Shown here piece by piece: positions 20,329-55,520 of a stretch of 64,000 bases of DNA. Position 1 is the first letter of the stretch; each line of letters starts with the position of its first letter. The notes below the pieces were generated by a model. It ran no database searches. It saw only the letters and a program-made list of their open reading frames with translations, and had not been told where the DNA came from. The stretch spans positions 13,512 through 77,511 of the forward strand of contig CACEMP010000003.1 of assembly GCA_902560675.1 (NCBI GenBank), given 5' to 3'. This DNA comes from an uncultured Alphaproteobacteria bacterium (GTDB lineage Bacteria; Pseudomonadota; Alphaproteobacteria; HIMB59; GCA-002718135). The translations under genes and the position numbers were made by a program.

Positions 20329-20415
20329 GCGGCTGTGGCGGAATTGGTATACGCGCAGCGTTGAGGTCGCTGTGGGATTTATCCTGTGGAAGTTCAAGTC
20401 TTCTCAGCCGCACCA
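20329..20415 (+). tRNA. tRNA-Leu (anticodon GAG), CCA encoded
   Basis: Acceptor stem GCGGCTG/CAGCCGC plus ACCA; D-loop GGAATTGGTATAC; anticodon arm CAGCG-TTGAGGT-CGCTG; long variable arm; T-loop GTTCAAG. Confidence 0.96.
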
Positions 20416-23150: not shown

Positions 23151-24088
23151 TGAAGAAAAGCATAGCAATACAAATGGATGATATTTCTGAAATTGATTAT
23201 GAATTTGATAGTTCTTTTTTGATAGGTTATGAAGCACAATTAAGAGATTATGATATCTTCTACTATAATCCAAATGATCTATATATAATTGAGAATAATA
23301 TTCAGGCTTCAGGATATTTTATAGAATTAGCTTTAGATAAAAATAATTATTTTAAATTTAAATCAAAGAAAATATTTGTAAAGTTAGAAAAATTTCAATT
23401 TATCTTTTTAAGACAAGATCCTCCATTTGATATGAGCTATATAACATCTACTTATATTTTAGATTTACTTCCAGCTTCAACAATTGTTGTAAATAATCCA
23501 ACAGCAGTTAGAAACTCTACAGAAAAATTATTTACATTTAAATTTAGAGAATTTATGCCACCTACATTAGTAACAAAAGATTTAAAAATTATTGAAGACT
23601 TTTTAATTAAAGAAGAAGATATTATAACTAAGCCACTCTATGGAAATGGAGGAGAAGGTATACATAGATTTAATAAAAATAATTTTAATAATAAAATTAT
23701 ACAGCAATATTTGCACTTGCCTATTATGGTTCAAAAATTTATAAAAGAGATAGACGATGGTGATAGAAGAATAATCTTTTTTGATGGAGAATACCATGGT
23801 TCTGTTGCAAGAATACCGCAACTTGGTAATCTTAAAGCAAATTTCCATGCTGGTGGTAAGGCATATAAAACAGATCTCGTATATAGAGACAGAGAAATTA
23901 TAGAAACTTTGGGCCCTGAATTAAAAAAACATAACCTTTTTTTTGTTGGTATTGATGTGATTGGAAATTATCTCACAGAAATAAATGTAACATCGCCTAC
24001 AGGTTTAAAGCAAATTAATGCATTAAATAATGTAAAATTAGAAAAAGATTTTTGGGATAAGCTTGAAGCAAAATATAAATTAGTTTAA
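23150..24088 (+). CDS. gshB: Glutathione synthetase
   Basis: QMD, RQDPPFDM.YI, KPLYGNGG, GDRRI, TEINVTSPTG. Confidence 0.96.
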   Translation: MKKSIAIQMDDISEIDYEFDSSFLIGYEAQLRDYDIFYYNPNDLYIIENNIQASGYFIELALDKNNYFKFKSKKIFVKLEKFQFIFLRQDPPFDMSYITSTYILDLLPASTIVVNNPTAVRNSTEKLFTFKFREFMPPTLVTKDLKIIEDFLIKEEDIITKPLYGNGGEGIHRFNKNNFNNKIIQQYLHLPIMVQKFIKEIDDGDRRIIFFDGEYHGSVARIPQLGNLKANFHAGGKAYKTDLVYRDREIIETLGPELKKHNLFFVGIDVIGNYLTEINVTSPTGLKQINALNNVKLEKDFWDKLEAKYKLV

Positions 24089-24112: not shown

Positions 24113-24679
24113 ATGCACAAAGATAGAATTTTAATAAATAAACTAAAAAACTTTGAAAATATAAACTCTAATATATTATCAATAATGTTGATATTAATGG
24201 GCTCAATCTTGTTAGCTATTTCAGCTAAAATTCAGGTACCATTTTGGCCAGTACCAATGACAATGCAAACATTCATTATTTTTTTAATAGGAATGACATA
24301 TAGTATTAGATTATCTTTTGCGACTGTAGTGTTTTATCTTTTTCAAGGAGCTATTGGACTTCCTGTTTTTGCATCTGGAGGAGGGATTGCATATTTGATT
24401 GGTCCAACTGCAGGATATCTTTACGGAATGTTAGTTGCATCAATTATTATAAGTTATTTTGCAAATTTAGGATTTAGCAAAACATATTTTAAAACTGCTT
24501 TATCTTTATTTGTTGGATCTATAGTAATATTTTCATTTGGTATTTTATACCTTGGCTATATTATTGGTTACCAAAAAGCAATTGCTGCTGGTTTATTACC
24601 TTTTCTCCCAAGTGAAATTTTTAAAATAGCACTAGCAGTTGTTTTAATACCAACATTACATAAATTTATTAATAAATAG
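24113..24679 (+). CDS. bioY: Biotin transporter BioY (solitary ECF S-component)
   Basis: PVPMTMQT, GAIGLPVFA, GPTAGYL, PFLP. Confidence 0.92.
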   Translation: MHKDRILINKLKNFENINSNILSIMLILMGSILLAISAKIQVPFWPVPMTMQTFIIFLIGMTYSIRLSFATVVFYLFQGAIGLPVFASGGGIAYLIGPTAGYLYGMLVASIIISYFANLGFSKTYFKTALSLFVGSIVIFSFGILYLGYIIGYQKAIAAGLLPFLPSEIFKIALAVVLIPTLHKFINK

Positions 24680-24685
24680 TAATTA

Positions 24686-25576
24686 ATGAAAATTGGTATT
24701 GATGTAGGTGGTACCAAAACCGAAGGTATTTTGTTAGACACTAATGGAAATGAAATAGATAGAAAAAGAATTAATACTGAAAAATCTTATGATGGAACTA
24801 TAAAAGGCATACTATCAATAATAAATTATTTTGAAGATAAATATGGTAAAGTAAAAACAGTAGGTATGGGCATGCCTGGTGCAATATCAAATGATACAGC
24901 TTTAATTAAAAATGCAAATTCAATATGGTTAAATGGAAAACCATTTAAACAAGACTTAGATAAAATCCTAAAAAGAAATGTTAATTTAGAAAATGATGCA
25001 AACTGTTTTACTCTTTCTGAAGCAGTTGATGGAGCTGGAAAGGGTTTTAAAATTGTTTTTGGAGTAATTATTGGGACAGGTGTTGGCGGTGGTATAAGCA
25101 TTGATCAAAAAATTTTAAGAGGTCGTAATAGTATAAGTGGTGAATGGGGGCATATTACATTACCAAATAGGAGTGAAGATGAAAAAAAGTATGTCAAAGA
25201 ATGTTATTGTGGAAAAGATGGCTGCTTAGAAACTTACATATCAGGCCCAGGTTTTTCATCCAATTACAATTTACGTTTTAATAAAAATTATAATTCGCAT
25301 CAAATATTAGAAGCTTTTAATAATAAAGAAGATGATAGTATTTTTGCTCTAAATCAATATGTCGATCATTTGGCAAGAGGTTTGTCTTTAGTTTGTAATA
25401 TACTTGATCCAGATGTGATAGTGCTTGGAGGTGGTATGTCAAATATTGATTTTATTTATAAAAATATAAATGATGCATTAAAAAAATATGTTTTCACCGA
25501 CACACTTCATACCAAAGTTGTTAAAAATATTCATGGAGACTCCAGTGGAGTAAGAGGTGCAGCTTGGCTTTCTTAA
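24686..25576 (+). CDS. ROK-family sugar kinase (Mak/fructokinase-like)
   Basis: GIDVGGTK, ENDANC, GTGVGGG, GEWGH, CYCG..GCLE zinc motif, GDSSGVRGAA. Confidence 0.9.
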   Translation: MKIGIDVGGTKTEGILLDTNGNEIDRKRINTEKSYDGTIKGILSIINYFEDKYGKVKTVGMGMPGAISNDTALIKNANSIWLNGKPFKQDLDKILKRNVNLENDANCFTLSEAVDGAGKGFKIVFGVIIGTGVGGGISIDQKILRGRNSISGEWGHITLPNRSEDEKKYVKECYCGKDGCLETYISGPGFSSNYNLRFNKNYNSHQILEAFNNKEDDSIFALNQYVDHLARGLSLVCNILDPDVIVLGGGMSNIDFIYKNINDALKKYVFTDTLHTKVVKNIHGDSSGVRGAAWLS

Positions 25577-27024
25577 ATACCACCCATTGATATATATTTT
25601 ATAGTTAAATAATCATCGAGTCCATAACGAGAACCCTCTCTTCCCATTCCTGATTCTTTTACACCTCCAAAAGGAACTTCTGCAATAGTTGGTAATCCAT
25701 TGTTTATTGAAACTATTCCATACTCTAGTGCCTCCGCAACCCTCCAAATTCTTCCAATATCTCTTGAGAAGAAATAAGAAGCTAAACCATAAGGAGTATT
25801 ATTTGCCATTTTAATAACTTCCTCATCATTTGAAAATTTATAGAGTGGCGCAACAGGACCAAAAGTTTCTTCAAAAGTTATTTTTGCTTTAGTAGAAACA
25901 TTAGACAAAACAGTTGGTTGATAAAAATTTCCTCCAAGAGAATGTATATCGCCACCAATTGCAATTTTAGCACCTGTATTTACAGCATCTTGAACATGAT
26001 CAATTACTTTCTCTAATGATGATTTGTCAATTAATGGACCAGAAATAATTCCATCTTCAAGTCCATTACCAACAGTAATTTTTTCTACTTCTTTTGTAAA
26101 TTTGTTTAAAAATTCATCATAAATTTTTTCGTGAACAAATATTCTGTTGGTACAAATACAAGTTTGACCACTATTTCTAAATTTACTTTGCATTGCTCCT
26201 GTAACAGCTTCATCCATATCAGCATCATCAAAAACAATTAGTGGAGCATGACCTCCAAGTTCCATTGAAACTTTTTTTACAGTTGAGGCACTTTGTTCTA
26301 AAAGTATTTTTCCAACTTCTGTTGATCCTGTAAATGAAATTTTTCTAACTGTAGAATTACTTGTTAATTCCCTCCCTATTTCACTTGCTGAACCAGTTAT
26401 AACATTAAATACACCATCAGGAAAACCAGCTTCTTTTGCAAGTTGTGCAACAGCCAAAGCTGAAAAAGGTGTTTGACTTGCTGGTTTTACAACAGTAGTA
26501 CATCCAACAGCCATAGCAGCAGCACATTTTCTTGTAATCATTGAATTAGGAAAATTCCATGGAGTTATTGCGCCTACTACACCAACAGGCTGCTTAATAA
26601 TTACAATTCTTTTACCGGGCCTTGGATCTGGTATTATATCACCATATACTCTTTTTGCTTCCTCCGCGTAGAACTCAATATAGGAAGCACCCATTAATAT
26701 TTCACCCTTTGCTTCGGCCAGAGGTTTACCCTGCTCAATTGTCATTATCTTAGCTAAGTCATCTGAATTTTTTGAGATCAATTCCCCCCATTTTTTTAAA
26801 ATTATTGATCTTTCTTTAGCTGTTGTTTCCTTCCAGCTTTGAAAAGCGTTATTAGCATGATCAATTGCAATTTTTGTTTCTGCAGTTGAGCATTTTGGCA
26901 CATTTCCAATTATTTCTAGAGAAGCTGGATTATTTACTTCAAGAGTTTCTCCTGAAGCACTACCAATCCATTGTCCATTAATAAAACATTTTTGTTTAAA
27001 CAGCGATTTGTTATTTAATTCCAT
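25573..27024 (-). CDS. gabD: NAD(P)-dependent succinate-semialdehyde dehydrogenase family (GabD/DoeC-like)
   Basis: ITPWNFP, FTGSTEVG, ELGGHAP, KFRNSGQTCIC, EETFGP, PFGGVKESG.GREG. Confidence 0.8.
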   Translation of the reverse strand: MELNNKSLFKQKCFINGQWIGSASGETLEVNNPASLEIIGNVPKCSTAETKIAIDHANNAFQSWKETTAKERSIILKKWGELISKNSDDLAKIMTIEQGKPLAEAKGEILMGASYIEFYAEEAKRVYGDIIPDPRPGKRIVIIKQPVGVVGAITPWNFPNSMITRKCAAAMAVGCTTVVKPASQTPFSALAVAQLAKEAGFPDGVFNVITGSASEIGRELTSNSTVRKISFTGSTEVGKILLEQSASTVKKVSMELGGHAPLIVFDDADMDEAVTGAMQSKFRNSGQTCICTNRIFVHEKIYDEFLNKFTKEVEKITVGNGLEDGIISGPLIDKSSLEKVIDHVQDAVNTGAKIAIGGDIHSLGGNFYQPTVLSNVSTKAKITFEETFGPVAPLYKFSNDEEVIKMANNTPYGLASYFFSRDIGRIWRVAEALEYGIVSINNGLPTIAEVPFGGVKESGMGREGSRYGLDDYLTIKYISMGGI

Positions 27025-27066
27025 AAATTTTAATTATAATGAATAATCTAAATTAAGGAAATTATA

Positions 27067-28170
27067 ATGACAATAGTTAATTCTTGGAATGAATGGGATC
27101 CATTAAAACATGTAATAGTTGGGGCCGTTGAAAATGCAAATGTACCTCCTATGGAAACTGCACTTGTACCTAAGATTAGTAAAGATAGTGGAATGATGGG
27201 TTCTCACGGACCTCGTTCAAAAGAGTCAATCGACAAAGCTAATATACAACTAGAAAACTTTGTTAAAATTTTAAATTCTCTAAATATAAAAGTTGATCGA
27301 CCAACACCTATTGACTTTTCTCAAAGTATCGAAACTCCAGATTGGTCAAATGATGGCATGTTTGGCTGTATGCCTCCAAGAGATGTTATTCTCACTGTAG
27401 GAAATGAAATGCTAGAAGCACCCATGTCTTATAGGTGTAGATGGTTTGAGTATCTTGCATATAGACCTTTACTTGAAAAATATTATTCAGAAGATAAAAA
27501 TATGAGATGGGAGTCGGCACCTAAACCAAGATTAACAAATCAATCTTATAAGTTTAATTATCTTCCTGAAGGCATAACTGAAGAAGAACGATACAAAAAA
27601 ATTGAAAATAGAGACATGATTTTGACAGAAAAAGAACCACTTTTTGATGCTGCAGAAATTTTACGCTTTGGAAAAGATCTTTTTTATCATAACAATTTTA
27701 CATCAAATTTAAGTGGCTTAGATTGGTTAAGAAGACATTATAGAAATCATCGTGTTCATCAAATTAATTTGCCAGGTGATTTAATACCAACTCACATTGA
27801 TGCATGTTTTACTCCTATTAAACCAGGAGTAATAATTATTAATCCAAATAGAAAAATTTCATCAGAGCAAAGAAAAATTTTTGATGATAATAAATGGGAA
27901 ATTCATGAAGCAGCTCCTTCTATTCATAATAGCCCACCACCTATGTGTTATTCATCTATTTGGTTATCTATGAATGTTTTGATAATTGATCCTAAAACTA
28001 TATGTGTCGAAGCGACTGAAGAAAAAATGATTAAACAAATGGAAAGTTTTGGATTAGATGTTATTCCAATTCCTTTTAGAGACGTTTATGCTTTTGGTGG
28101 TAGTTTACATTGTGCAACAACTGATGTTTATAGAGAAGGTGAGTGTGAGGATTATTTTCCAAATCAATAA
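27067..28170 (+). CDS. Amidinotransferase (L-arginine:glycine amidinotransferase/StrB1 family)
   Basis: NSWNEWDPL, PRD, FDAA, HIDA, SS.WLSMNVL, GGSLHC (Asp-His-Cys triad intact). Confidence 0.88.
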   Translation: MTIVNSWNEWDPLKHVIVGAVENANVPPMETALVPKISKDSGMMGSHGPRSKESIDKANIQLENFVKILNSLNIKVDRPTPIDFSQSIETPDWSNDGMFGCMPPRDVILTVGNEMLEAPMSYRCRWFEYLAYRPLLEKYYSEDKNMRWESAPKPRLTNQSYKFNYLPEGITEEERYKKIENRDMILTEKEPLFDAAEILRFGKDLFYHNNFTSNLSGLDWLRRHYRNHRVHQINLPGDLIPTHIDACFTPIKPGVIIINPNRKISSEQRKIFDDNKWEIHEAAPSIHNSPPPMCYSSIWLSMNVLIIDPKTICVEATEEKMIKQMESFGLDVIPIPFRDVYAFGGSLHCATTDVYREGECEDYFPNQ

Positions 28171-28925
28171 TGGATAGTTTTAATCAAAATAATGTTAAAG
28201 CCAATTTAAAAGATACAAACTTTTCTAGAATTGGTGTAATTACACTATCAACTGATTTTACCATTGAGCAGGATTTTAGAAAAATTTGCCATAATTTACC
28301 TGTTGATCTATTTTTTAATAGGATACCTTTTTTAAATCCTCTAACTCATGAAAATTACATAAAGATGGCTGATCATATTACAGAAATAACAAATCAAATA
28401 TTACCCAATGAAAAAATACAAGTTGTAGCGTATGGATGTACTTCGGGTACTATTGAAATTGGTGAAAAAAGAATAAGATCTGAAATCTTCAAAGCTAAAC
28501 CTGATGCTTTAATCACTACGCCTATTACAGCAGCTGTAAAAGCACTTAAATTGTTAAACCATAAAAAAATTGCTGTTCTTACCCCTTATCCAAATGATGT
28601 TAATGTAAAAGTTTACAATTATTTAATAGATAGTGGTTTTGAAATTAAATCATTTAGTTCATTTAATTTAAACTATGACTCGGAAATTGCCAAAGTTACC
28701 CATGACAGTTTAATGAGAACAATTTCCTCAATTGATTCAACAGATGTTGATAGTATTTTTGTATCTTGTACCGCATTAAAAGTAATTGATATTATTGAAA
28801 AATTAGAGTCAAAATTAAACACAGATATCATTTCAAGTAATCAAGCTATTATTTGGGATTCACTAAGATTATCTAATATTAATCAAAAAATTGATGGTTT
28901 TGGTAATCTACTTAAATTACATTAA
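28170..28925 (+). CDS. eutA: EutA-like Asp/Glu racemase / maleate isomerase family protein
   Basis: GVITLSTD.TIEQDF, YGCTSG and VSCTAL Cys dyad, SSNQA; lies directly upstream of eutBC. Confidence 0.72.
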   Translation: MDSFNQNNVKANLKDTNFSRIGVITLSTDFTIEQDFRKICHNLPVDLFFNRIPFLNPLTHENYIKMADHITEITNQILPNEKIQVVAYGCTSGTIEIGEKRIRSEIFKAKPDALITTPITAAVKALKLLNHKKIAVLTPYPNDVNVKVYNYLIDSGFEIKSFSSFNLNYDSEIAKVTHDSLMRTISSIDSTDVDSIFVSCTALKVIDIIEKLESKLNTDIISSNQAIIWDSLRLSNINQKIDGFGNLLKLH

Positions 28926-28937
28926 ATAGGGTTTAAA

Positions 28938-29900
28938 TTGATTACACTTCAACAAATACAAGATGCACATAAGAAGATTTTACCTTATGTTAATTATACA
29001 CCATTAGTTAATTCTAATTTCTTATCAAAAAATAATAAAGTAAAACTAAAGTTAGAAAATTTTCAAATTACTGGTTCATTTAAGTTAAGAGGTGCAGTTA
29101 ATAAGCTACTTTCTTTAAGCAAAGATGACAAAAACAAAGGAGTCATCGCAGTTTCTACAGGTAATCATGGCAAAGGAGTTGCTTATGCTTCAAAGGTATT
29201 AGGCATTCAATCAACAATATACATGTCTTCAATGGTTCCAGAATATAGAAAAGAGGCTATTGAAAAATTAGGAGCAAAAGTAGAAATTATTGGAAAAAAT
29301 AGTGATGAAGCTGATTTGCATGCTAAACGAATTGCCAAAGAAAAAAATATTCCATTAATCCATCCATTTGACGATGAAGATATTATTATAGGTCAAGGAA
29401 CAGTGGGTTTAGAAATGCTCGATCAGTTCCCAGATGTTGATACAGTTATTATTCCAACATCTGGCGGCGGCCTTATTTCTGGAATTGCACAAGCAATTAA
29501 ACTTCAAAAACCTGATACAAAAATTATTGCAGTATCCATGGAAAGAGGACCCTCCATGTATGAAAGTCTAAAACAAGGTAAGCCTGTCGATGTTAAGGAA
29601 ACTGAAACTTTAGCTGATTGTTTAGGTGGCAGCATTGGCTTAGATAATAAATTTACTTTTAATATTGTACAAAAATATGTTGATGACTTTGTTTTAGTTA
29701 GTGAAGAAAAAATAGCTGAGGGAATAAGAATGAATTTTTTAGAACATAAAATAGTATCTGAAGGTGCAGCAGCAACAAGTGTTATGGTTGTTAAAGAAAA
29801 ACTAACATCACACTTAGGAAAAAATATAATCTGTTTAATTTGTGGAGGTAATATAGACTCGGAATTATTCAATAAAGTTTTAAGTCATGCTCATACTTAA
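28938..29900 (+). CDS. eutB: Hydroxyectoine-utilization dehydratase EutB (threonine dehydratase family)
   Basis: KLENFQITGSFKLRGA, STGNHG, SGGGL, EutB-typical LADCLGGSIGLDN.FTF; TTG start. Confidence 0.8.
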   Translation: MITLQQIQDAHKKILPYVNYTPLVNSNFLSKNNKVKLKLENFQITGSFKLRGAVNKLLSLSKDDKNKGVIAVSTGNHGKGVAYASKVLGIQSTIYMSSMVPEYRKEAIEKLGAKVEIIGKNSDEADLHAKRIAKEKNIPLIHPFDDEDIIIGQGTVGLEMLDQFPDVDTVIIPTSGGGLISGIAQAIKLQKPDTKIIAVSMERGPSMYESLKQGKPVDVKETETLADCLGGSIGLDNKFTFNIVQKYVDDFVLVSEEKIAEGIRMNFLEHKIVSEGAAATSVMVVKEKLTSHLGKNIICLICGGNIDSELFNKVLSHAHT

Positions 29901-30861
29901 TAAAAATCAGATTATTCAACATGTGCACTTAAATGAAGAACTCATTCCAATAATTGAAGAAGCTTTTGTCAGTTTATCAAAAGGATCAGTTATGATGCCC
30001 CCAATTATGAGAATTGATATTAAGAAATACCATGGCGAATCTGATATTAAAGCTGCTTATATTGAAGGTTTAGATAGCTTTGCAATAAAAATAGCATCAG
30101 GTTTTTTTGATAATCCAAAAATTGGTTTGCCATCAAGTAATGGATTGATGGTTTTATTAGACTCTGAAACAGGAATAGTAAAATCTGTTTTATTAGATGA
30201 AGGTTATCTTACAGATACTAGAACAGCTATTGCAGGAGCTATAGCTACAAAATATTTATCAAATCAAAACGCTAATACGGTGGGGATCATTGGAGCTGGA
30301 ATTCAAGCCAGATTACAACTTCAAGCTATAATGTTAGTGAGAAAAATTAATAAAATTACGGTTTGGGCAAGAGACAAGATTAAAGCTAATCAATTTTTAG
30401 ATAGCTTTAAAGATTTAGAAATAGATTTGCATATGGCTTCTTCTTGTAAAGAATTGGCTTGTTTATCAGAGATAATCGTTACAACAACTCCAAGTAAAAA
30501 ACCTCTTTTAGAGTTTGATTGGATAAAAAAAGGAACACATATAACTGCAATGGGATCAGATGCAGAACATAAAAATGAAATAGATCCTCATATGTTAAAA
30601 TATTGTGATCAATATGTGCCAGATAATCAATCACAGACAAGTGCATTAGGTGAATTACATCATGCATTGAAAAAAAATCTAATTTCATCTCAAGAAAAAT
30701 TTAATGATCTTGGTGATATTATTAATGATCCAAACTTAGGAAGAAAAAATAAAGAAGATATAACGATATGTGATTTGACAGGAACTGGTGTACAAGATAC
30801 TGCGATAGCAAGATTTACTTTTAATCTTTGTAAAAAAAATAATTTAGGCATCAATATTTAA
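29887..30861 (+). CDS. eutC: Cyclodeaminase/ketimine reductase EutC (OCD/mu-crystallin family)
   Basis: FAIKIASGFFDNP.IGLPS.NG, GYLTD.RTA, GAG.QA, AMGSDAEHKNE, DLTGTGVQD. Confidence 0.82.
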   Translation: MLILNKNQIIQHVHLNEELIPIIEEAFVSLSKGSVMMPPIMRIDIKKYHGESDIKAAYIEGLDSFAIKIASGFFDNPKIGLPSSNGLMVLLDSETGIVKSVLLDEGYLTDTRTAIAGAIATKYLSNQNANTVGIIGAGIQARLQLQAIMLVRKINKITVWARDKIKANQFLDSFKDLEIDLHMASSCKELACLSEIIVTTTPSKKPLLEFDWIKKGTHITAMGSDAEHKNEIDPHMLKYCDQYVPDNQSQTSALGELHHALKKNLISSQEKFNDLGDIINDPNLGRKNKEDITICDLTGTGVQDTAIARFTFNLCKKNNLGINI

Positions 30862-30864
30862 AAC

Positions 30865-32307
30865 ATGAGTCAAACAATAATTAAAAAAACATCTGATTAC
30901 TTCAAATCTAAAGGAGTTGTCTTGCCAAGTATAAGTGAACTTCAAAATCCTCAAAGTATTAATGAAAATATTAAAAATTCTCTAAAAAAAATAAATAATA
31001 ATGACATAAACCCACTTAATCTTTTTAGAGTACATTGGTTCAACAAAAGAGATCAATCAGGTTTTGGTAATGAGCCTGAATATGTTGTGCTTCCGTCAGA
31101 ATTTACTGGGGTCAAAGCAAAGATTATTGTAAATATGGGACGTTATTTTCCCTTAATAACAGCTCATAAAGTTTTGGCAGCTTATGGTTGTTTGCTTCCA
31201 AGAATATTGAATGGCACTTTTGATTTTGAAAAACATAAAGCAGTTTGGCCTTCAACAGGAAATTATTGCAGAGGTGGAGTAGCAATATCTCGTATCATGG
31301 GACTTAATAGTATTGCTATACTTCCTGAAGGGATGAGTAATGAGAGATTTGAATGGTTGAATAATTGGGTCGAAGATAAAAAAAATATTATAAAGACAAA
31401 AGGCACAGAAAGCAATGTGAAAGAAATCTATGATGCTTGTAATGAACTAAAAAAAGATAGTCAAAACGATATTATAAATCAATTTGATGAGTATTTTAAT
31501 TACGGTATTCATCGTTCTGTAACTGGTCCATCTTTTGAAAAATCATTTCTTAAAGTTAAAGGTGACAGTAATTTAGTTCCAAGGTTTTATGTTAGCGCTT
31601 CAGGTTCTAGCGGTACTCTAGCAGCAGGAGATTATCTTAAAGATAAATTACAAACAAAAATTGCAGTTGTAGAAGCTTTGGAGTGTCCAACATTGCTTCA
31701 TGGAGGTTATGGTGAACATAATATACAAGGAATTGGCGATAAACATGTTCCACTTATTCATAATGTAATGAATACGGATTTTGTTGTAGATATTTCAGAT
31801 CAAGCTACCAATAATCTAAATATGATTTTTAATACTGAAATTGGAAAAAGGTTTTTAATACAGAGAAAGAATTTAGATCCTAATTTTGTTTCTCGACTTC
31901 CTGAATTTGGTTTTTCAGCAATAGCAAATATATTAGCTTCAATAAAACTAGCTAAATATATGGATTTAAATAGTGATGATGCAATTATCACCGTTGCTAC
32001 TGATGGTGCAGATTTGTACATGTCAGAATTAAATAAAACGATCAATGATTTTAAAGATAATTATAATGAAATAGTTTGTGCTGAATTATTAGGTAAGCAT
32101 TTATCAGGCATATCAACTGATAATATGTTGGAACTTTCTTATATGGATAAAAAAAGAATATTTAATCTAGGTTACTTTACATGGGTAGAACAACAAGGCA
32201 TAAGTCTTGATGATTTTGAGAAACGAAAAGATCAGAAATTTTGGAATTCACATTATGAATACATGCTTTCTCTAGACAATCAGATTAAAGAATTTAATAA
32301 TATGTAG
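30865..32307 (+). CDS. Uncharacterised fold-type-II PLP enzyme (cysteine synthase-like, 480 aa)
   Basis: HK(V) PLP lysine, STGNY loop, SGSSGT phosphate loop, HNIQGIG, TD. Confidence 0.75.
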   Translation: MSQTIIKKTSDYFKSKGVVLPSISELQNPQSINENIKNSLKKINNNDINPLNLFRVHWFNKRDQSGFGNEPEYVVLPSEFTGVKAKIIVNMGRYFPLITAHKVLAAYGCLLPRILNGTFDFEKHKAVWPSTGNYCRGGVAISRIMGLNSIAILPEGMSNERFEWLNNWVEDKKNIIKTKGTESNVKEIYDACNELKKDSQNDIINQFDEYFNYGIHRSVTGPSFEKSFLKVKGDSNLVPRFYVSASGSSGTLAAGDYLKDKLQTKIAVVEALECPTLLHGGYGEHNIQGIGDKHVPLIHNVMNTDFVVDISDQATNNLNMIFNTEIGKRFLIQRKNLDPNFVSRLPEFGFSAIANILASIKLAKYMDLNSDDAIITVATDGADLYMSELNKTINDFKDNYNEIVCAELLGKHLSGISTDNMLELSYMDKKRIFNLGYFTWVEQQGISLDDFEKRKDQKFWNSHYEYMLSLDNQIKEFNNM

Positions 32308-32310
32308 TTT

Positions 32311-33465
32311 ATGAAAACACAAGCTTTACATAACCAATTAGTAGAATGGCGTCATGATCTTCATATGCACCCACAATTAAGTTTTGAAGAAGAGTATGCT
32401 GCAGCAAAAGTGTCCACACTACTTAAAGAGTTTGGCATAGAAGTTCATTCGGGTATAGCCAGAACAGGCGTAGTTGGAATATTAAAAAAAGGGAATAGTT
32501 CAAAATCAATTGGTATTAGAGCTGATATGGATGCTCTTCCTATACATGAAACCAACACTTTTAGTTATAAGTCAAAATTCGATAATCGAATGCATGCATG
32601 TGGACATGACGGCCACACAACTATGTTATTAGGTGCAGCAAAATATTTGGCAGAAAAAGGGAACTTCAATGGTACCGTATATTTTATTTTTCAACCTGAT
32701 GAAGAAAATACATTTGGTGCAAGAACTATGATTGATGAAGGTCTATTTGATAATTTTAGTATTGATGAAGTATATGCTTTGCACAACATTCCTAATATGG
32801 AAATTGGAACATTTGGAACAAGAAAAGGAGCCATTACAGCAAGTGAAAATTTATTTGAAATAGAAATAAAAGCTAAAGGTGGTCATGCGGCATTGCCTCA
32901 TATGGGTGTTGATGCAATAACCGTTGGTTCTCAAATAGCTGTGGCTCTTCAATCGATTGTATCAAGAAAGTTAAATCCAGCAGATAATGGTATAGTTTCT
33001 ATTACTGAATTTATGACAGATGGTAAAAAAAATGTTTTGCCAGGTATGGTAAAAATGACTGGTGACGCGAGAGCTTTATCAAAAGAAACAAATGAAAAAA
33101 TTGCTTCAAAAATGTTACAAATTGTCGAAGGTATTTGCAATGCACATGGTGTTAATGGTAGTGTTAAATATGAAACGACATGCCCAGTAACTTATAATTC
33201 AAAAAACCAAACTGAGTCTGCAACAAAAGCTGCAGTTTCATTACTTGGCAACGATAGATGTAATGCTGATATTGAACCACGTTTATTCTCAGAAGATTTT
33301 TCTGTTATGGCAAATGAAATACCTGGCTGTTTTGTTTTAATGGGTAACGGTACATCAGAGCAGCATTCTAGACCTTTACATGCAGACAATTATGATTTTA
33401 ATGACGAATTATTAGTCATAGGTTCTTCATATTGGACTGAATTGGTAGAACAACAATTAAAATAA
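32311..33465 (+). CDS. M20D amidohydrolase (hippurate hydrolase/aminoacylase-like)
   Basis: HMHP.LSFEE, RADMDAL, MHACGHDGH, FQPDEE, GGHAA.PH, SEDF, LH. Confidence 0.9.
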   Translation: MKTQALHNQLVEWRHDLHMHPQLSFEEEYAAAKVSTLLKEFGIEVHSGIARTGVVGILKKGNSSKSIGIRADMDALPIHETNTFSYKSKFDNRMHACGHDGHTTMLLGAAKYLAEKGNFNGTVYFIFQPDEENTFGARTMIDEGLFDNFSIDEVYALHNIPNMEIGTFGTRKGAITASENLFEIEIKAKGGHAALPHMGVDAITVGSQIAVALQSIVSRKLNPADNGIVSITEFMTDGKKNVLPGMVKMTGDARALSKETNEKIASKMLQIVEGICNAHGVNGSVKYETTCPVTYNSKNQTESATKAAVSLLGNDRCNADIEPRLFSEDFSVMANEIPGCFVLMGNGTSEQHSRPLHADNYDFNDELLVIGSSYWTELVEQQLK

Positions 33466-34623
33466 ATGTTTTCTGAAAATTTAAATAAATTAAAGAAAAA
33501 AATGTCTGAGAATAATATTGATCTCTCAATTATAACTGATGATGACTCTATATATTATTTCACAGGATACCATGACTTCCTTCATATGGATTTTTATCGA
33601 CCAACACTTTTAGTCGTTTCAAATGATCATAAAACTTACTTAATTACACCTCTTCTTGATGTTTTATTAGTACCAGAAACTTGTCCTGTAGATTTGGTTG
33701 AAACATGGAATGATGGTATTGGAAATGAATGGAGAGAATTATTACCTCAAATCATCAATCAGCATAAAAATATTTTTATTGAAAAATTTAAAATAAATCC
33801 AATGGTTAAGAGTTACTTAGATGAATTACTTCAAGACCATCCTGGTGATATAACTAAATTAATAGATAATATAAGAATGATCAAATCTAATCATGAATTG
33901 AATATAGCTCGTCATGCTGGTGAAGTTGGTATGGCTATGATGGAGGCAGCTAAAAAAACAATTGACCATAATGTTCCTGAGTATGAGGTCGCACTTGCGC
34001 AATCACAAGCCGGAACAAGAAAAGCTGCAGAGCTTTTAAAAAAATTTTATCCTGATAATATTAATATGTCTCCAAATATTCACTTTTTACCAGTTATGAC
34101 ATCAGGTCATGATTTACCTAAAACTCACCATCGCGCTTCAACCAAAATTATTAAAAAAGGTGATCCCGTATTTGTATGTTATTGTGGTTCTACAAATTTT
34201 CATAGGTTTAAGTTAGGTTTTGACAGAATATTTTGGGTAGAAGAAATTCAATCTAATGAACAAATAAAAGCTTTTGAGGCTGCAGTTAAATCTCAAAAAG
34301 CTGCTCTTGAAATTCTTGGCCCAGGAGTTACGGCTGAAGAAGTTCATGCTGCTTATGCAGATACTATACAGTCTGAAGGATACCCGTATCCTACTTTTCG
34401 ATGTGGCAGAGGTACGGGCTTTAGTTTTTTAGAGGAGCCACAATTAGTAGTTGGTAATAAAACAGTACTCGAGCCTGGAATGGTATTTGCCGTTGATGGA
34501 GGAGCAAGTGCAAATAAATTTAGATCACAGGTTGGTGATAGTTTTATTATTACAAAAGATGGATACGAACAAATTACACATCATTCTAAAAATATTGATG
34601 ATCTAATAATTCAACATGGATGA
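33466..34623 (+). CDS. M24 pita-bread hydrolase (creatinase/EutD-like, metal ligands degenerate)
   Basis: Creatinase_N-like N-terminus (SIYYFTG), RMIKS..E, GD.V, L.PG.TAEEV, LEPGMVF. Confidence 0.78.
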   Translation: MFSENLNKLKKKMSENNIDLSIITDDDSIYYFTGYHDFLHMDFYRPTLLVVSNDHKTYLITPLLDVLLVPETCPVDLVETWNDGIGNEWRELLPQIINQHKNIFIEKFKINPMVKSYLDELLQDHPGDITKLIDNIRMIKSNHELNIARHAGEVGMAMMEAAKKTIDHNVPEYEVALAQSQAGTRKAAELLKKFYPDNINMSPNIHFLPVMTSGHDLPKTHHRASTKIIKKGDPVFVCYCGSTNFHRFKLGFDRIFWVEEIQSNEQIKAFEAAVKSQKAALEILGPGVTAEEVHAAYADTIQSEGYPYPTFRCGRGTGFSFLEEPQLVVGNKTVLEPGMVFAVDGGASANKFRSQVGDSFIITKDGYEQITHHSKNIDDLIIQHG

Positions 34624-35641
34624 AATAACAGTATTTAATACACATTGTTGTGGTGAAATTGGGGATGTCGTAATTGGATTCAAAGGTTTAAAGTTCAATT
34701 CACCTGAAGAAGCTTCTAAAAAACTTTTTTTAGATAAAAAATGGAGAAATTTTTTTTTAAATGAACCTCGGGGAGGAGTCTTTAAACATTGTAATATTAT
34801 TTTAGAGCCTTCAAATAAAAATGCAGATGCTGGATTTGTCATTATGGAACCAGAAGATAATCCTCCAATGAGTGGATCAAATACAATTTGTGTAACAACA
34901 GTCTTATTAGAAAAAAATATTGTTCAAATGAAATATCCTAAAACAATGCTTACACTTGAAGCTCCCGGTGGTTTAATAAAAGTTGTTGCTGATTGTGAAA
35001 ATAAGAAAGTTAAAAGTGTAACTTTTACTAATCTTGCCTGCTTTGCAGATAAGATAGATGTAGATTTAAAGACTAAAAATTATGGTACAATTAAAGTAAG
35101 TACTGCTTTTGGTGGTGATAGTTTTTTGATTTGTAATGCTAGTGATTTTAATCTTAAAATTGAACCACAAAATGCAATTAAATTTGTAAATGTTGCCAAA
35201 GAATTATTAAAAGAAGCAAATGCATCAATTGGATTTGAACATCCTACAATTAAAGAATTAAACTATCTTTCCTTTTGTCAATTTATTGAACCTTTGCAAA
35301 AAAATAATCGATCATTACTAACAGGGTTAAATACTGTTGTTATACGACCAGGGAAACTTGATCGTTCACCTTGCGGTACAGGCACTTCAGCAAGATTAGC
35401 AGTAATGAAAGAAAAAAATGAAATACAACTAAATGAAGAATTTATATCAAAGTCTATTATAGGATCATCATTTAAAGCTAGTATTGAAAAGGAAATTCAA
35501 ATAAATAACAAAAATTGTATTATTCCAAAAATAACTGGTACTGCATTTATCACTGGAAAACAAAGTTTATATTTCGATAAGGATGATCCTTTTCCGGAAG
35601 GTTATAGATTAAATGACACATGGCCAGATTCATCAACTTAA
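34616..35641 (+). CDS. Proline racemase superfamily enzyme (Ser/Cys dyad)
   Basis: H..GE, L.EPRG, MSGSN, EAPGG, DRSPCGTGTSAR, DPFPEG. Confidence 0.88.
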   Translation: MDEITVFNTHCCGEIGDVVIGFKGLKFNSPEEASKKLFLDKKWRNFFLNEPRGGVFKHCNIILEPSNKNADAGFVIMEPEDNPPMSGSNTICVTTVLLEKNIVQMKYPKTMLTLEAPGGLIKVVADCENKKVKSVTFTNLACFADKIDVDLKTKNYGTIKVSTAFGGDSFLICNASDFNLKIEPQNAIKFVNVAKELLKEANASIGFEHPTIKELNYLSFCQFIEPLQKNNRSLLTGLNTVVIRPGKLDRSPCGTGTSARLAVMKEKNEIQLNEEFISKSIIGSSFKASIEKEIQINNKNCIIPKITGTAFITGKQSLYFDKDDPFPEGYRLNDTWPDSST

Positions 35642-35717
35642 CTGTGATTAAATAACACTAGCTTGGTAAATTAATTTATTTTACTTTAATCAATTATTCT
35701 AATAATTAATAAAACAA

Positions 35718-36983
35718 ATGACAAAATTTGATGCCTGGAATGTAATTAAAAACGGTTTAAATGGTCAGTCTTATTGGACTAGACAATGGCGTGATCCAGA
35801 ACCAAAAAATAGTTATGATGTTGTAATAATCGGGGGAGGTTTACATGGTCTTGCCACAGCATATTATCTAGCAAAGAATCATAATATAAAAAATGTAGCT
35901 GTCTTAGAAAAAGGCTGGATAGGTGGCGGAAACGCTGGACGTAATACAACCATTGTAAGATCAAATTATATGATGCCAGGTAATCACGAATTCTATGAAC
36001 ATTCTTTAAAGTTATGGGAAAATTTAAGTCATGAATTAAATTACAATGTAATGTTTAGCCAACGAGCTCATGTGTCATTATTTCATAGTCCTAGTGCTAA
36101 AGATTCAGTTTCAAGGATTTATAATATTATGAGGCTGCATGGAACTGATGCAGAACTTTGGGATTTAAAAACTTTAAAGAAAAAAATCCCGCATTTAAAT
36201 TATCATAATTCTAGATTCCCAATACTTGGAGCTGCAGTCCAGAAAAGAGCAGGTAATGCAAGACATGATGCAGTTGCATGGGGTTATGCAAGAGCTGCAG
36301 ATACATTAGGTGTAGATATTCTTCAAAATTGTGAAGTTACAGGCTTTACAAGAAAAAATGGAAAAATTGAAAGTATTCAAACTTCAAGAGGAATTTTAAA
36401 AGCAAAGAAAATAGGATTTGCTGTTGCTGGGAATACTTCAGTATTATGGCAAATGACAGAATTAGGCAACTTACCAATTGAGTCCCATAAATTACAAGCT
36501 TTTGTGTCTGAAGCAGTTAAACCGCTTTTAGATCAGGTTGTTGTATACGGTGTGGGCGGTGCACATTTCTATATATCTCAGTCTGATAAAGGAAGCATGG
36601 TGTTTGGCGGTGATCTTGATTGGTATAAATCATATGCACAAAGAGGAAATCTTCCTATGGTTCAAGATGTTGCTGAAGCGGCCATGGCAATATTTCCTTC
36701 ACTTGGCAGAATAAGATTACTTCGTCATTGGGCAGGTGTTATGGATATGACAATGGACGGATCTTTTTTTATTTGTAAAACACCGATATCTAATCTCTAT
36801 TTAAATGCTGGCTGGAATTATGGAGGTTTCAAAGCGAGTCCAGCATCAGGCTGGTATTTTGCTGACTTAATTGCAAATGAGAGTCCACATAACTATGTTC
36901 AAAATCATAATTTAGAAAGATTTGAAAAAGGGATCAACATAGATGAACGTGGTGCAGGACCTGATCCAAAATTGCACGGTTAA
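35718..36983 (+). CDS. soxB: Heterotetrameric sarcosine oxidase family, beta subunit
   Basis: GGGLHGLATAYYLA, GGGNAGRNTT.VRSNY, ARHDAVAWGYARAA, LQAFVSE. Confidence 0.93.
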   Translation: MTKFDAWNVIKNGLNGQSYWTRQWRDPEPKNSYDVVIIGGGLHGLATAYYLAKNHNIKNVAVLEKGWIGGGNAGRNTTIVRSNYMMPGNHEFYEHSLKLWENLSHELNYNVMFSQRAHVSLFHSPSAKDSVSRIYNIMRLHGTDAELWDLKTLKKKIPHLNYHNSRFPILGAAVQKRAGNARHDAVAWGYARAADTLGVDILQNCEVTGFTRKNGKIESIQTSRGILKAKKIGFAVAGNTSVLWQMTELGNLPIESHKLQAFVSEAVKPLLDQVVVYGVGGAHFYISQSDKGSMVFGGDLDWYKSYAQRGNLPMVQDVAEAAMAIFPSLGRIRLLRHWAGVMDMTMDGSFFICKTPISNLYLNAGWNYGGFKASPASGWYFADLIANESPHNYVQNHNLERFEKGINIDERGAGPDPKLHG

Positions 36984-37268
36984 ATGATTAGAATCAATTG
37001 TCCTTATTGTGGTGAAAGAGATCATAGTGAATTTAGTTATGGAGGAGATGCAACAATAAATTATCCTTCGTTAGATGCCTCTGAGAAAGAATGGACTGAG
37101 GCTATATTTTTTAGAAAAAATATAAAAGGTTTTCAATTTGAAACATGGCATCATTCTAATGGATGTAGAATGTGGTTAGTAGTTGAACGTTCTACAGTCA
37201 CACATGAAATAAAAAGTGTGAAACCATGTCATCCAGACTTACAGAAGGTTGTAGAAAATAATAAATGA
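36984..37268 (+). CDS. soxD: Sarcosine oxidase family, delta subunit
   Basis: CPYCGER..EF.YGG, W.H..GCR.W zinc ligands. Confidence 0.92.
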   Translation: MIRINCPYCGERDHSEFSYGGDATINYPSLDASEKEWTEAIFFRKNIKGFQFETWHHSNGCRMWLVVERSTVTHEIKSVKPCHPDLQKVVENNK

Positions 37269-40222: not shown

Positions 40223-40778
40223 ACATTCTGCGCTAGAAACACTTTATAAAGTTGGAAAATTTTCAACAAACGAGAAACAATTTTTAACATTTAAAGAATT
40301 AAAAAGTTTAGAAATTCTACAAATTGCTTGTTGGCCTGACAAAATTGATGAATTAAATAATTTATTAACAAAAAAATTGTCTATTAAAAATATTCCCTTT
40401 TTTAATAAAGGGATTGTTTTTGAAAATAAATCATTATGGAGAATGGAACCCTTGAAATGGTGGTTATTTAATAAAGAAATCGAAGTAAGTGAGCAAATTG
40501 CAACAATTTTAGATATGTCTCATGCTTTCACAGGTATTGAAATTAAAGGAGATAATTCATCATTATTTTTAAATAGACATCTTCCAGTTGATTTAAGAGC
40601 TAAGAATTTTCCAGATCTATCGTCTGCTAGCACAGCCATTCATCATGTTAGTGTTAAATTATTTAAAATATCCTCCAATAATTACCATCTATATATACCA
40701 AGAGGTTTTGCCTTATCAATTTGGGAGATCCTTCTTGAAACAGCAAATCAGTTTGGATACGAAGTATTAGAGAGATAG
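40215..40778 (+). CDS. soxG: Sarcosine oxidase family, gamma subunit
   Basis: Follows soxA; D.SHA, PVDL...F, PRGFA..W; ATG 40215 after SD GGAG. Confidence 0.8.
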   Translation: MHRHSALETLYKVGKFSTNEKQFLTFKELKSLEILQIACWPDKIDELNNLLTKKLSIKNIPFFNKGIVFENKSLWRMEPLKWWLFNKEIEVSEQIATILDMSHAFTGIEIKGDNSSLFLNRHLPVDLRAKNFPDLSSASTAIHHVSVKLFKISSNNYHLYIPRGFALSIWEILLETANQFGYEVLER

Positions 40779-40852
40779 ATAGATTATCTTAGGGTAATGG
40801 AAACTGGTTATAAACTAATTACTAATATATTTAGCGATTTGCTTATAGTAAA

Positions 40853-41533: not shown

Positions 41534-41538
41534 AGATA

Positions 41539-43200: not shown

Positions 43201-43254
43201 TTATTAAATATCTATAGTTAATTTTATTTTTTTCATTAATAGATGTAATAATCT

Positions 43255-46261: not shown

Positions 46262-46390
46262 ATTAATTTCCCAGAATACTGCGACTTTTTTTTATTTTTA
46301 AACCTTTTTTTTCAATAAGCTACATGTTATTAGGTCCCCATTACAGACATAATCTTAAGATTAAACTAATTAAAAAATAGGAGGATATAT

Positions 46391-47494: not shown

Positions 47495-47525
47495 GCTTGA
47501 TAAATTAAAAATTGTAATTTAATCT

Positions 47526-48831: not shown

Positions 48832-48833
48832 TT

Positions 48834-49730: not shown

Positions 49731-49734
49731 AATT

Positions 49735-55469: not shown

Positions 55470-55476
55470 TATTTTT

Positions 55477-55507: not shown

Positions 55508-55520
55508 AAAGGCTAATTTA

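Follow-up and report, generated by a model that had tools for sequence, protein, structure and literature searches.

We analysed a 64,000-nt stretch of DNA from an uncultured alphaproteobacterium of the HIMB59 lineage (GenBank assembly GCA_902560675.1, contig CACEMP010000003.1, positions 13,512 to 77,511 of the forward strand), which is called the window below. The subject is a string of eight genes on its plus strand, named here g1 to g8, that resembles in part the eut cluster for ectoine and hydroxyectoine catabolism. The predicted product of g1 (27067–28170), which matches PDB entries 1jdx and 1jdw, is an amidinotransferase of the L-arginine:glycine amidinotransferase (AGAT) family. g2 (28170–28925) shares 1 nt with g1 and encodes an EutA-like two-cysteine racemase/isomerase. 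After a 12-nt gap, g3 (28938–29900) encodes an EutB-like, pyridoxal phosphate (PLP)-dependent beta-hydroxy-amino-acid dehydratase, and g4 (29887–30861), which overlaps g3 by 14 nt, an EutC-like member of the ornithine-cyclodeaminase/mu-crystallin family (cyclodeaminase or imine reductase). g5 (30865–32307) follows after 3 nt and encodes a 480-amino-acid-residue PLP enzyme of fold type II. Another 3-nt gap leads to g6 (32311–33465), an M20 N-acyl-amino-acid amidohydrolase proposed to be the deacylase and EutE analogue, which is joined without a gap to g7 (33466–34623), a hydrolase of the M24/creatinase fold proposed to act on a ring or amidine. g8 (34616–35641), which overlaps g7 by 8 nt, encodes an apparently accessory enzyme of the proline-racemase superfamily (hydroxyproline-epimerase or 3-hydroxyproline-dehydratase group).

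Divergent from g1, with 42 nt between them, lies gabD (25573–27024, minus strand), which encodes a succinate-semialdehyde-type NAD(P)-dependent aldehyde dehydrogenase resembling Ssd (DoeC). On the other side, soxB (35718–36983) starts 76 nt after g8 and is followed, also on the plus strand, by soxD (36984–37268), soxA (37265–40222) and soxG (40191–40778), all of the heterotetrameric sarcosine-oxidase type. The 74-nt spacer after soxG (40779–40852) is the site of an EutD-type gene in relatives. An earlier note made from the sequence alone had described eight co-oriented genes at these spacings, 76 nt from soxB and 42 nt from the divergent gabD, and the open reading frames (ORFs) are exactly so. 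On our best reading, the cluster covers the five EutABCDE roles and that of Ssd with a partly different cast: g2 for EutA, g3 for EutB, g4 for EutC, g7 for EutD, g6 for EutE and gabD for Ssd/DoeC.

Families of the encoded enzymes

The best-scoring families of g2, g3 and g4 were EutA, EutB and EutC, in the canonical A-B-C order; the earlier note had called eutABC recognisable. g2 scored 210.7 bits on the EutA model TIGR02990 (cut-off 318) and 78.8 bits on Pfam Amdase. It belongs to the superfamily of Asp/Glu racemases, maleate isomerases and arylmalonate decarboxylases, and it retains the two catalytic Cys residues of maleate isomerase 2XEC, on which the two-base maleate-isomerase/racemase mechanism depends. 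g3 scored 385.6 bits on NF005680 (hydroxyectoine utilization dehydratase EutB, cut-off 413) and 357.3 on the other EutB model (413.35); the next-best model was ilvA with 321. g4 exceeded the cut-off of the cyclodeaminase model NF006141 (453.1 against 408) and reached 414.2 against 471.65 on the EutC model TIGR02992. On pyrroline-2-carboxylate (Pyr2C) reductase models it scored 153 and 69 bits. Its nearest relatives outside SAR11 are 42–51% identical and include those of the canonical Eut genomes G042, G357, G247 and G110.

Loci in which EutA exceeds its curated cut-off (L117–L120) were used as canonical references. g2 to g4 are 31–51% identical to proteins of such loci, and g3 is 41–46% identical to EutB in canonical eutABC loci. 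gabD, which scored 711.7 bits on the succinate-semialdehyde dehydrogenase (SSADH) model TIGR01780 (cut-off 646), is 44–47% identical to the aldehyde dehydrogenases adjoining eutABC in L117–L120. By these matches it is an Ssd/DoeC-type partner standing beside eut-like genes, with a predicted role on aspartate semialdehyde. A match to the EutA model alone was rejected as a marker of ectoine catabolism: such matches occur at E ≤ 1e-30 in 89 of 401 genomes, and 15 loci of the large group scoring 200–243 bits (L121–L135), taken from the top-scoring places below the cut-off in that search, mostly have no Eut neighbours.

g1 aligned with human AGAT (1jdx) across residues 4–364 at E 7.7e-76. In this alignment g1 keeps the His-x-Asp stretch of the active site as well as the C-terminal His-Cys motif; no Pfam or NCBIfam model matched. 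g1 is thus assigned by sequence to the amidinotransferase family (AGAT/StrB1/SxtG), and its donor and acceptor are predicted only. g5 gave only weak PALP/CysK-like matches. Its best NCBIfam score was 70.5 bits on cysK, whose cut-off is 351, so by the curated test it is not a cysteine synthase. The AlphaFold2 model of g5 (pLDDT 87.7) has a CysK/CBS-like core with extra helices as N- and C-terminal extensions. The best Foldseek matches were cysteine synthases, CBS and beta-cyanoalanine synthase (TM-score 0.74–0.80 on the target, 20–27% identity), and Lys102, where a helix begins, does not vary among 15 sequences. The model points to beta-replacement or beta-elimination as the chemistry of g5. 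Homologues fall into at least 8000 clusters at 90% identity, and the sole name among the matches listed was "cysteine synthase", for one protein of a metagenome-assembled genome (MAG); an ESM Atlas search returned unnamed PALP clusters only.

g8 belongs to the superfamily Pro_racemase (PF05544; 329 bits against 27) and scored below the cut-off of the T3LHyp dehydratase equivalog NF047722 (414.8 against 550). Its best PDB matches were 4k8l, 1tm0 and 4k7g (351 bits, E 5e-104). The catalytic dyad of g8 is Ser/Cys, and 4k8l and 1tm0 have Thr at the second position; since the solved dehydratase is Ser/Thr, g8 may be an epimerase rather than a dehydratase. The sox genes have the subunit order B-D-A-G, with soxB over the cut-off of TIGR01373 (606 against 529) and soxA (1161.3 against 1164), soxD (104.4 against 116.5) and soxG (53.2 against 144) below theirs. 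Whether soxBDAG belongs to the same unit as g1 to g8 is uncertain.

The two hydrolases stand apart from their Eut counterparts. g6 exceeded the cut-off of TIGR01891 (hippurate hydrolase/ILR1/YxeP type; 327.2 against 153.75) and matched YxeP (1ysj) at E 4.2e-75; it was below cut-off on DoeB2 (NF038260; 319 against 550) and on the CpsA equivalog (318 against 500). g7 matched Pfam Peptidase_M24 with 86.8 bits and Creatinase_N with 62.8, and reached 44–60 bits on the EutD model TIGR02993 (cut-off 613) and 54 bits on DoeA_2. Among PDB entries, prolidases came first with 73 bits; of the creatinase entries, 1chm gave 55 bits (E 6e-14) and 7yto E 1.8e-6, and DoeA gave 41 bits. The metal ligands of prolidase are Asp, Asp, His, Glu and Glu, which we take to be positions 209, 220, 284, 313 and 327 of the Pyrococcus furiosus enzyme. 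At these five columns, mapped through alignment with 1pv9, g7 has C, G, R, D and D. Two other M24 proteins of the same genome have D, D, H, E, D and D, D, H, E, E, and canonical EutD has E, P, Y, M, E. The C-G-R-D-D signature is identical in 11 of 12 g7-like proteins (37–59% identity), the twelfth (L161) being incomplete and showing the first two columns only. Because all g7-like proteins that cover the columns share it, g7 is, judged from these residues, a distinct M24 subfamily without the dinuclear metal site and not a normal peptidase.

Recurrence in other genomes and variation among relatives

A search with g7 of 401 sampled Alphaproteobacteria gave 15 genomes at E ≤ 1e-25, its own included, and a phylum-wide sample of 401 added two, both again Alphaproteobacteria. 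Fourteen g7-like loci outside SAR11 were fetched; 12 of them, including two same-genus pairs, were clustered for the count of CN-hydrolases. Orthologues of g6 and g7 (49–60% identical) form a tight pair in L159, L160 and L161, with g6 directly upstream of g7. In L159 (genome G097, 63% G+C) an SSADH-like aldehyde dehydrogenase, the g6 orthologue (60%), the g7 orthologue (59%) and an EutA-like gene lie on one strand, and L161 has the order EutA-like, g6 (49%), g7 (50%). A gshB gene stands a few genes upstream of the L159 cluster (16904–17857), as one does in the window (23150–24088); this shared position may be a coincidence.

In L160, from the 5.1-Mb genome G110, one co-directional string runs from a partial EhuB-like gene to the g7 orthologue. 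After the EhuB-like gene it has EhuC (240 against 197), EhuD (262 against 205) and EhuA (375.5 against 345) and continues with EutB (431.6 against 413) and EutC (476.5 against 408), all over their cut-offs. A CN-hydrolase, a DoeA_2-like M24 (198 against 575), a class-III aminotransferase, g6 (49%) and g7 (54%) follow EutC. No EutE was found in the G110 genome, so the M20 enzyme of L160 is the only deacetylase candidate there. Across the loci outside SAR11, an EutA-like gene adjoins the g7-like gene in five of 14 (L159, L161, L164, L195 and L196) and an M20 gene in three of 14; a carbamoylase-type CN-hydrolase does so in six of 12. The functional linkage of the genes is real, and what shows it is their conservation and their recurrence in other places, not spacing.

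g5 and the amidinotransferase are tied to the same type of transporter within SAR11. In L067, which comes from a single-cell genome of the Pelagibacteraceae, an AGAT orthologue (62%) stands after g5. On the other side of g5, in divergent orientation, are genes for PhyH-family and MOSC proteins and for an ABC transporter, whose components include EhuC (222 against 197), EhuA (406 against 345) and, at 158 against 191, one resembling EhuB. The permeases and the ATPase of this transporter are 59–70% identical to those of L160, and the same Ehu-type transporter cluster adjoins g5 in L066 and L076. The PhyH-family protein of L067 was considered as an ectoine hydroxylase and rejected, since it matched no EctD-type model and only the chlorinating-enzyme subfamily (65.7 bits). 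Outside SAR11, a common theme for g5 was sought and not found: EamA exporters, Opp-type ABC transporters, P450-like proteins and short-chain dehydrogenases adjoin it, and in a myxobacterial MAG an amidohydrolase and a second PALP enzyme do. AGAT orthologues (56–63% identical) occur in six non-SAR11 genomes among 401 sampled. In one of them, G389 (L185, C1:140300-160200; 30% G+C, 1.3 Mb), its neighbours encode two M24 proteins, one of them DoeA-like, a threonine-aldolase/GntG-like PLP enzyme and an EamA transporter. This amidinotransferase-centred cluster, distinct from the operon, may process a beta-hydroxy amino acid. The other five contexts share no gene with the operon.

These associations bear on the idea that the string degrades hydroxyproline or a proline derivative, with g8 as a 3-/4-hydroxyproline epimerase or dehydratase, g4 as a Pyr2C reductase or ornithine cyclodeaminase (OCD), g7 as a prolidase and g6 as a dipeptidase or carboxypeptidase. 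g8 does match the 4k8l/1tm0/4k7g group of 4HypE, 3HypE and t3HypD enzymes, which have OCD-family Pyr2C reductases as known neighbours in the relevant part of PMC4113996, and prolidases are the best PDB matches of g7. We nevertheless hold this idea to be very improbable. g7 lacks three of the five prolidase ligands and has Asp for Glu at the other two; g4 scores 453 and 414 on cyclodeaminase and EutC models against 153 and 69 on those for Pyr2C reductase; g8 is dispensable in four otherwise intact loci; and outside SAR11 the g6-g7 pair travels with Ehu, EutB, EutC and EutA-like genes, not with hydroxyproline genes.

Among relatives, 80 loci were fetched with the g5 protein and mapped with all window proteins, and 57 of them had room on both sides. 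g1 to g8 and soxB are kept in 39 of the 57, in some at just 60–80% identity (L055, L057, L059, L060 and L063). In the remainder the string varies by parts. g8 alone is missing in four loci with the order otherwise kept, and in four others the string ends after g6. g2 is missing in one; g1 and g2 are missing in another (L058), which has two extra M24 genes instead. L077 retains g2 to g5 only, six loci have g5 alone, and in one (L067) g5 and the AGAT orthologue lie in the different setting described above. The replacement of g1-g2 by two extra M24 genes was seen in L058 (5674–8051) and L061, one MAG titled MarineAlpha5 being among these, and one of the extra M24 proteins of these lineages has an EutD-like E-P-Y at the ligand columns.

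An EutD-type M24 hydrolase gene of 391 residues lies directly after soxG in 18 of 42 assessable SAR11 loci (L007, L019-L022, L030, L039-L041, L044, L045, L048, L050, L051, L059, L060, L063 and L078) and is absent in 24. In G209, a genome of the same genus that is 96% complete, it occupies C1:696013-697179, starts 20 nt after soxG and scores 470.5 bits on TIGR02993. The protein shares 43% identity with canonical EutD, taken from loci whose EutA exceeds its cut-off, and has E, A, Y, M and E at the five M24 columns. It is found in diverged branches (70–74% identity) as well as in close ones. In the window's genome, an assembly of 1.36 Mb in 38 contigs that is 82% complete, no orthologue was found: the best match is 25% identical, and only the 74-nt spacer stands at the site. 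The window strain is thus an EutD-less variant of a string that runs, at its fullest, from the amidinotransferase to the EutD-type hydrolase. Presence or absence of this gene among close relatives constitutes a natural experiment, and isolates exist.

A sub-clade represented by L018, L042, L043, L046 and L047 (G401–G405) is without g7, g8 and orthologous soxBDAG. Its loci run on after g6 into the pot-like ABC transporter that in the window lies at 45173–49730, about 4.4 kb beyond soxG. A soxB paralogue of 51–52% identity is found elsewhere in four of these five genomes, and the window's genome has no such paralogue. We considered the joint absence as a functional link between g7, g8 and sox and discarded it, as it is best read as a single deletion in one sub-clade.

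The same absence could be invoked for a route from creatine or guanidinoacetate to glycine, in which g7 would be a creatinase-like amidinohydrolase yielding sarcosine for soxBDAG and the amidinotransferase would run in reverse to glycine and arginine. SAR11 needs glycine, g7 has the creatinase fold, and we take creatinase, like g7, to be without the M24 metal site. In loci lacking g8, moreover, g7 lies directly upstream of soxB. This route is nonetheless hardly credible. The similarity to creatinase is weak (1chm, 55 bits), and outside SAR11 the neighbours of g7-like genes are EutA-like, M20 or CN-hydrolase genes, in no case sox. Creatine is achiral and its breakdown needs no deacylase, and the joint loss in L018-type genomes looks like one contiguous deletion.

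A proposed catabolic route and its setting

We propose that the locus is a SAR11 version of a catabolic cluster for ectoine/hydroxyectoine-type solutes, that is cyclic amidines or N-acylated hydroxy-diamino acids, and consider this probable, if only by a little. An ectoine-type substrate is favoured because the genes are linked repeatedly to Ehu, EutB and EutC genes over their cut-offs and to the EutD-type gene. The proposal is further supported by the A-B-C order of g2 to g4, by the g6-g7 pair outside SAR11, by the likeness of gabD to the aldehyde dehydrogenases of canonical eut loci and by a gene order kept in 39 of 57 loci at identities as low as about 60%. RNA speaks for it too: contigs at least 90% alike, assembled from the RNA libraries of four marine studies, one library each, cover 25–28 of the 30 bins of 26900–36800 and bridge g1/g2, g2/g3, g4/g5, g5/g6, g6/g7, g7/g8 and g8/soxB, which is consistent with expression in the sea. 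The exact reactions of EutABC are stated to be still unresolved in the part of PMC8739950 that deals with them, and every step given here is therefore inferred. The imported solute would first be ring-opened or de-amidinated by g7, a role that the EutD-type gene may share in relatives. The resulting N-acyl amino acid would be deacylated by the M20 amidohydrolase g6, and its stereochemistry adjusted by the two-cysteine EutA-like g2. EutB-like g3 and EutC-like, NAD(P)-dependent g4 would then remove the beta-hydroxyl. The skeleton would end as an aldehyde, to be oxidised by the divergent Ssd/gabD-type dehydrogenase, and a transaminase encoded elsewhere would be needed. g1, g5 and g8 would be additions peculiar to this lineage, with genomic links to transporters of the same kind. 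Amidino salvage to arginine or guanidinoacetate, beta-replacement or elimination, and epimerisation of a cyclic beta-hydroxy imino acid are possible roles for them.

Several observations weigh against this proposal. The equivalog cut-off for an ectoine-specific step is passed by none of the genes, g4 exceeding only that of a generic cyclodeaminase model. In the 82%-complete genome the best match to EutD (TIGR02993) reached 66.5 bits against 613, EutE (TIGR02994, cut-off 402.7) had no match at E ≤ 0.001, and the best EhuB match was 40.7 against 190.9. With no EutD-type, EutE or Ehu-type binding protein, ectoine entry in the window strain would rest wholly on the putative hydrolase g7. No diaminobutyrate (DABA) transaminase (Atf/DoeD) was found in the window, and the class-III aminotransferases on other contigs are just 32–33% identical to the L160 enzyme by tblastn. 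In G097, canonical EutC, EutD (720 against 613) and EutE (567 against 403) are present along with the separate cluster of aldehyde dehydrogenase, M20, g7 and EutA-like genes, and in G110 an EutD-like gene (580 bits against 613) lies immediately upstream of the L160 string. In these two genomes the g7-like protein is not simply the ectoine hydrolase. Gene spacing is uninformative for an operon in this genome, as set out below, and the synteny within SAR11 comes mostly from a single clade related by vertical descent, so that it speaks for a stable and modular string and not for one that recurs independently. The RNA contigs, for their part, do not prove that the genes are transcribed as one unit, and DNA can be present in RNA libraries. 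Their depth was not used to rank genes, and uncovered parts were not interpreted.

Some further searches complete the list of partners. EhuA reached at best 298 against 345.4 both in the window's genome and in G209, and two TRAP binding proteins matched generic DctP models only. None of the ORFs scanned from 18717 to 52394 matched a regulator family; EnuR and AsnC were not searched for. The earlier note had stated that the usual partners of eutABC are absent. For EutD, EutE, the transaminase and the transporter this is correct, but of the window only: 18 of 42 assessable relatives carry the EutD-type gene after soxG. gabD itself represents the Ssd/DoeC-type partner. The note had also regarded the M20 and divergent M24 enzymes as replacements of EutE and EutD. 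Recurrence of the pair in unrelated Alphaproteobacteria, with no EutE found in the genome that holds L160, speaks for a replacement, and the presence of both sets in G097 speaks against it.

From the coexistence of EutCDE and the M20–M24 module in G097, the module may serve a related but different substrate; the substrate of g2, g7 and g6 together may likewise be a related compound, or one given stereoisomer or intermediate. A somewhat unlikely reading carries this to the whole string: by the same mechanism it would degrade a related cyclic or N-substituted amino acid, such as a guanidino, cyclic-guanidine, ureido or N-acyl hydroxy-diamino acid. The amidinotransferase would remove or salvage the amidino group, EutB and EutC would process the released beta-hydroxy amino acid, and ectoine would be used only by strains with the EutD-type gene. 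Besides G097, the C, G, R, D, D columns of g7, which differ from E, P, Y, M, E in EutD, agree with such a substrate, as do the Eut-family scores under equivalog cut-offs. So do the CN-hydrolases that stand in place of M20 beside the g7-like genes in half of the 12 clustered loci, and the surroundings of AGAT in G389, with two M24 genes, one of them DoeA-like, and a gene for an enzyme resembling threonine aldolase. Against it, no candidate compound is named, the linked transporters pass the Ehu (ectoine/hydroxyectoine) cut-offs, and the EutD-type gene of relatives ties the string to ectoines; five of the seven AGAT contexts outside the window type share no operon gene. The earlier note had left a rebuilt ectoine pathway and a different amidine or guanidino substrate side by side. 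We favour the former as just probable over the latter as somewhat unlikely; the interpretation given in the note is supported in part.

A quite improbable explanation is that the string is a mosaic of independent nitrogen-scavenging enzymes, brought together by genome packing and vertical inheritance. Its modules would be the amidinotransferase, from arginine or guanidinoacetate to glycine; g8 and g4, for hydroxyproline or proline; the M20 and M24 enzymes, for acyl-amino acids or peptides; and sox, for sarcosine. Packing does favour it. Genome-wide, 70% of 954 co-directional neighbour pairs are separated by 12 nt or less, there are 13 runs of at least eight genes at such spacing, and the unrelated gshA, gshB and ROK kinase genes just upstream are packed equally tightly. 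Since such packing is the norm here, tight spacing is no evidence for an operon, and we discarded it as such. The string is also modular in relatives (loss of g8, of the part after g6 or of g1-g2; g2-g5 or g5 alone), and the conserved loci are mostly of one clade. Yet four combinations turn up again in high-GC genomes that are unrelated, or within SAR11 in other surroundings: the g6-g7 pair, g7 beside an EutA-like gene, EutB-EutC together with Ehu, and g5 accompanied by AGAT and Ehu. Vertical synteny cannot account for this. Moreover, the set maps one-to-one onto the roles of EutABCDE and Ssd. A chance juxtaposition, which the earlier note would have read from canonical eutD, eutE and doeD elsewhere together with an unconserved order, does not describe what was found: neither canonical eutD nor eutE was found in the 82%-complete genome, and the order stands in 39 of 57 loci.

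Signals at the borders of the string add nothing to these arguments. A promoter and terminator scan of 24500–41500 found none sensibly placed there (64 promoter-like sites where 91.9 were expected, and 12 terminator-like ones where 7.0 were) and was not used as evidence. The Rfam scan of the window found no riboswitch near the operon and matched only one tRNA. This tRNA gene (20329–20412, 52.7 bits) overlaps the first listed start codon of mgtE (20386), and the real mgtE start is probably further downstream.

The window has a G+C content of about 30%. Identity between its genes and those of relatives reaches 98%, and by this its genome is of the SAR11 type (Pelagibacteraceae). Upstream of gabD lie mgtE, gshA, gshB, an uncharacterised ORF and the ROK kinase gene. 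At the thresholds used, no NCBIfam model matched this 188-residue ORF between gshB and the ROK kinase gene (24113–24679) or the four ORFs after soxG of 238, 553, 328 and 287 residues (40853–45101). Beyond these are PotA/B/C-like ABC transporter genes (45173–46261 and 47554–49730) with an unclassified 367-residue ORF between them (46391–47494), a FAD enzyme resembling D-amino-acid dehydrogenase (DadA; 49735–50964) and, convergent to it on the minus strand, a betaine-aldehyde-dehydrogenase-like gene (50961–52394). The region 45173–52394 may be a second amine catabolic unit. A TRAP group follows (52449–56879), with a 171-residue ORF, a DctM-like gene (52961–54301) and a weakly DctP-like binding protein (54384–55469). 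After these genes comes one of the glutamine-synthetase family (55494–56879), which scored 244 bits on GlnA against a cut-off of 429 and could encode a gamma-glutamyl-amine ligase.

Relation to known systems and significance

In the parts of PMC5924519, PMC8739950 and PMC13188858 that describe it, the ectoine/5-hydroxyectoine cluster of Ruegeria pomeroyi and Sinorhizobium meliloti is arranged as enuR-ueh/ehu-eutABCDE-asnC-ssd-atf. The present locus shares with it the order of EutA-, EutB- and EutC-like genes, an adjoining Ssd/DoeC-type aldehyde dehydrogenase, and an M24-fold hydrolase with a deacylase; relatives add the EutD-type gene, and relatives or other genomes add Ehu-type transporters. 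Unlike that cluster, it has no EutD, EutE, Atf/DoeD or Ehu/Ueh that was found in the window or genome. Its deacylase is of the M20 and not the AstE/AspA type, its hydrolase comes from another M24 subfamily with other active-site columns, and it has three further members, namely an amidinotransferase, a PLP enzyme of the CysK fold and one enzyme of the proline-racemase family. All but one of its Eut scores lie under curated cut-offs.

Divergent hydrolase-deacetylase pairs for ectoine exist, as shown by the doeBDAC-type genes of halotolerant methylotrophs in the pertinent part of PMC7192451 and by the models DoeA_2 (NF038259) and DoeB2 (NF038260). DoeB2, an M20-type N-acetyl-diaminobutyrate deacetylase, is the second-best family of g6; no paper using this name was found in the literature searched. 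In contrast to the doe systems, g6 reaches only 319 of the 550 bits required on DoeB2, no better than on a generic amidohydrolase model, g7 scores 54 bits on DoeA_2, and no DoeD adjoins.

Hydantoinase-type modules combine a racemase, a ring-opening amidohydrolase and an N-carbamoyl-amino-acid amidohydrolase of the M20 or nitrilase type. The arrangement here is similar in that a two-cysteine enzyme of the racemase superfamily, a putative ring-opening hydrolase and an M20 or CN-hydrolase freeing the amino acid stand together. It differs in that the ring-opener would be of the M24/creatinase fold and not of the dihydropyrimidinase or ATP-dependent type, and no hydantoin-specific family was matched. 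As to hydroxyproline pathways, g8 falls into the sequence cluster of 1TM0, 4K8L and 4K7G, described as functionally mixed (4HypE, 3HypE and t3HypD) in the part of Zhao et al. 2014 (PMC4113996) that treats it, and an OCD-family enzyme is in the same string. Unlike the t3HypD pathways, g8 is Ser/Cys where solved t3HypD is Ser/Thr, and the OCD gene is of the EutC type. Some loci do without g8. In the window, it has no neighbouring gene for a D-amino-acid oxidase or a DHDPS-type enzyme, and the DadA-like gene lies about 14 kb downstream.

What is new here is that the logic and several families of the ectoine cluster are present, yet the locus did not pass the tests for EutD, EutE, transaminase and transporter, and three enzymes not known from that pathway are added. 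In a further proposal, which we regard as speculative and unlikely, g7 would found a new metal-free M24 family. With the EutA-like epimerase and a deacylase of the M20 or nitrilase type, it would make up a module of general use for opening the rings of cyclic amidine, guanidine or ureide amino acids. This module would be joined in SAR11 to the amidinotransferase and the CysK-fold enzyme to degrade an abundant marine nitrogen osmolyte, for example a guanidino or hydroxylated ectoine analogue. The amidino nitrogen would be salvaged by transfer, not released as urea, and the products would feed the glycine and aspartate pools.

Ectoine was recently reported among the major phytoplankton exometabolites, according to a portion of PMC13012070, and in the literature searched SAR11 is credited with ectoine/hydroxyectoine transport only (PMC6018831, PMC10030771). 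No SAR11 route for ectoine catabolism is described there, nor is this string, the g7 subfamily or a role of AGAT in SAR11; the EutD-phylogeny supplements of PMC13188858, which possibly list Pelagibacterales, were outside that search. The g7, g5 and AGAT families are very common in marine metagenomes yet uncharacterised. If the reading given here is true, it would provide functions for the C-G-R-D-D subfamily of M24 proteins (g7), the 480-residue CysK-fold family (g5) and bacterial AGAT homologues. SAR11 bacteria are among the most abundant heterotrophs of the ocean. If the string degrades ectoine-type solutes, it would be an added sink for nitrogen-rich labile dissolved organic matter, and it bears on how dissolved nitrogen is recycled in the sea.

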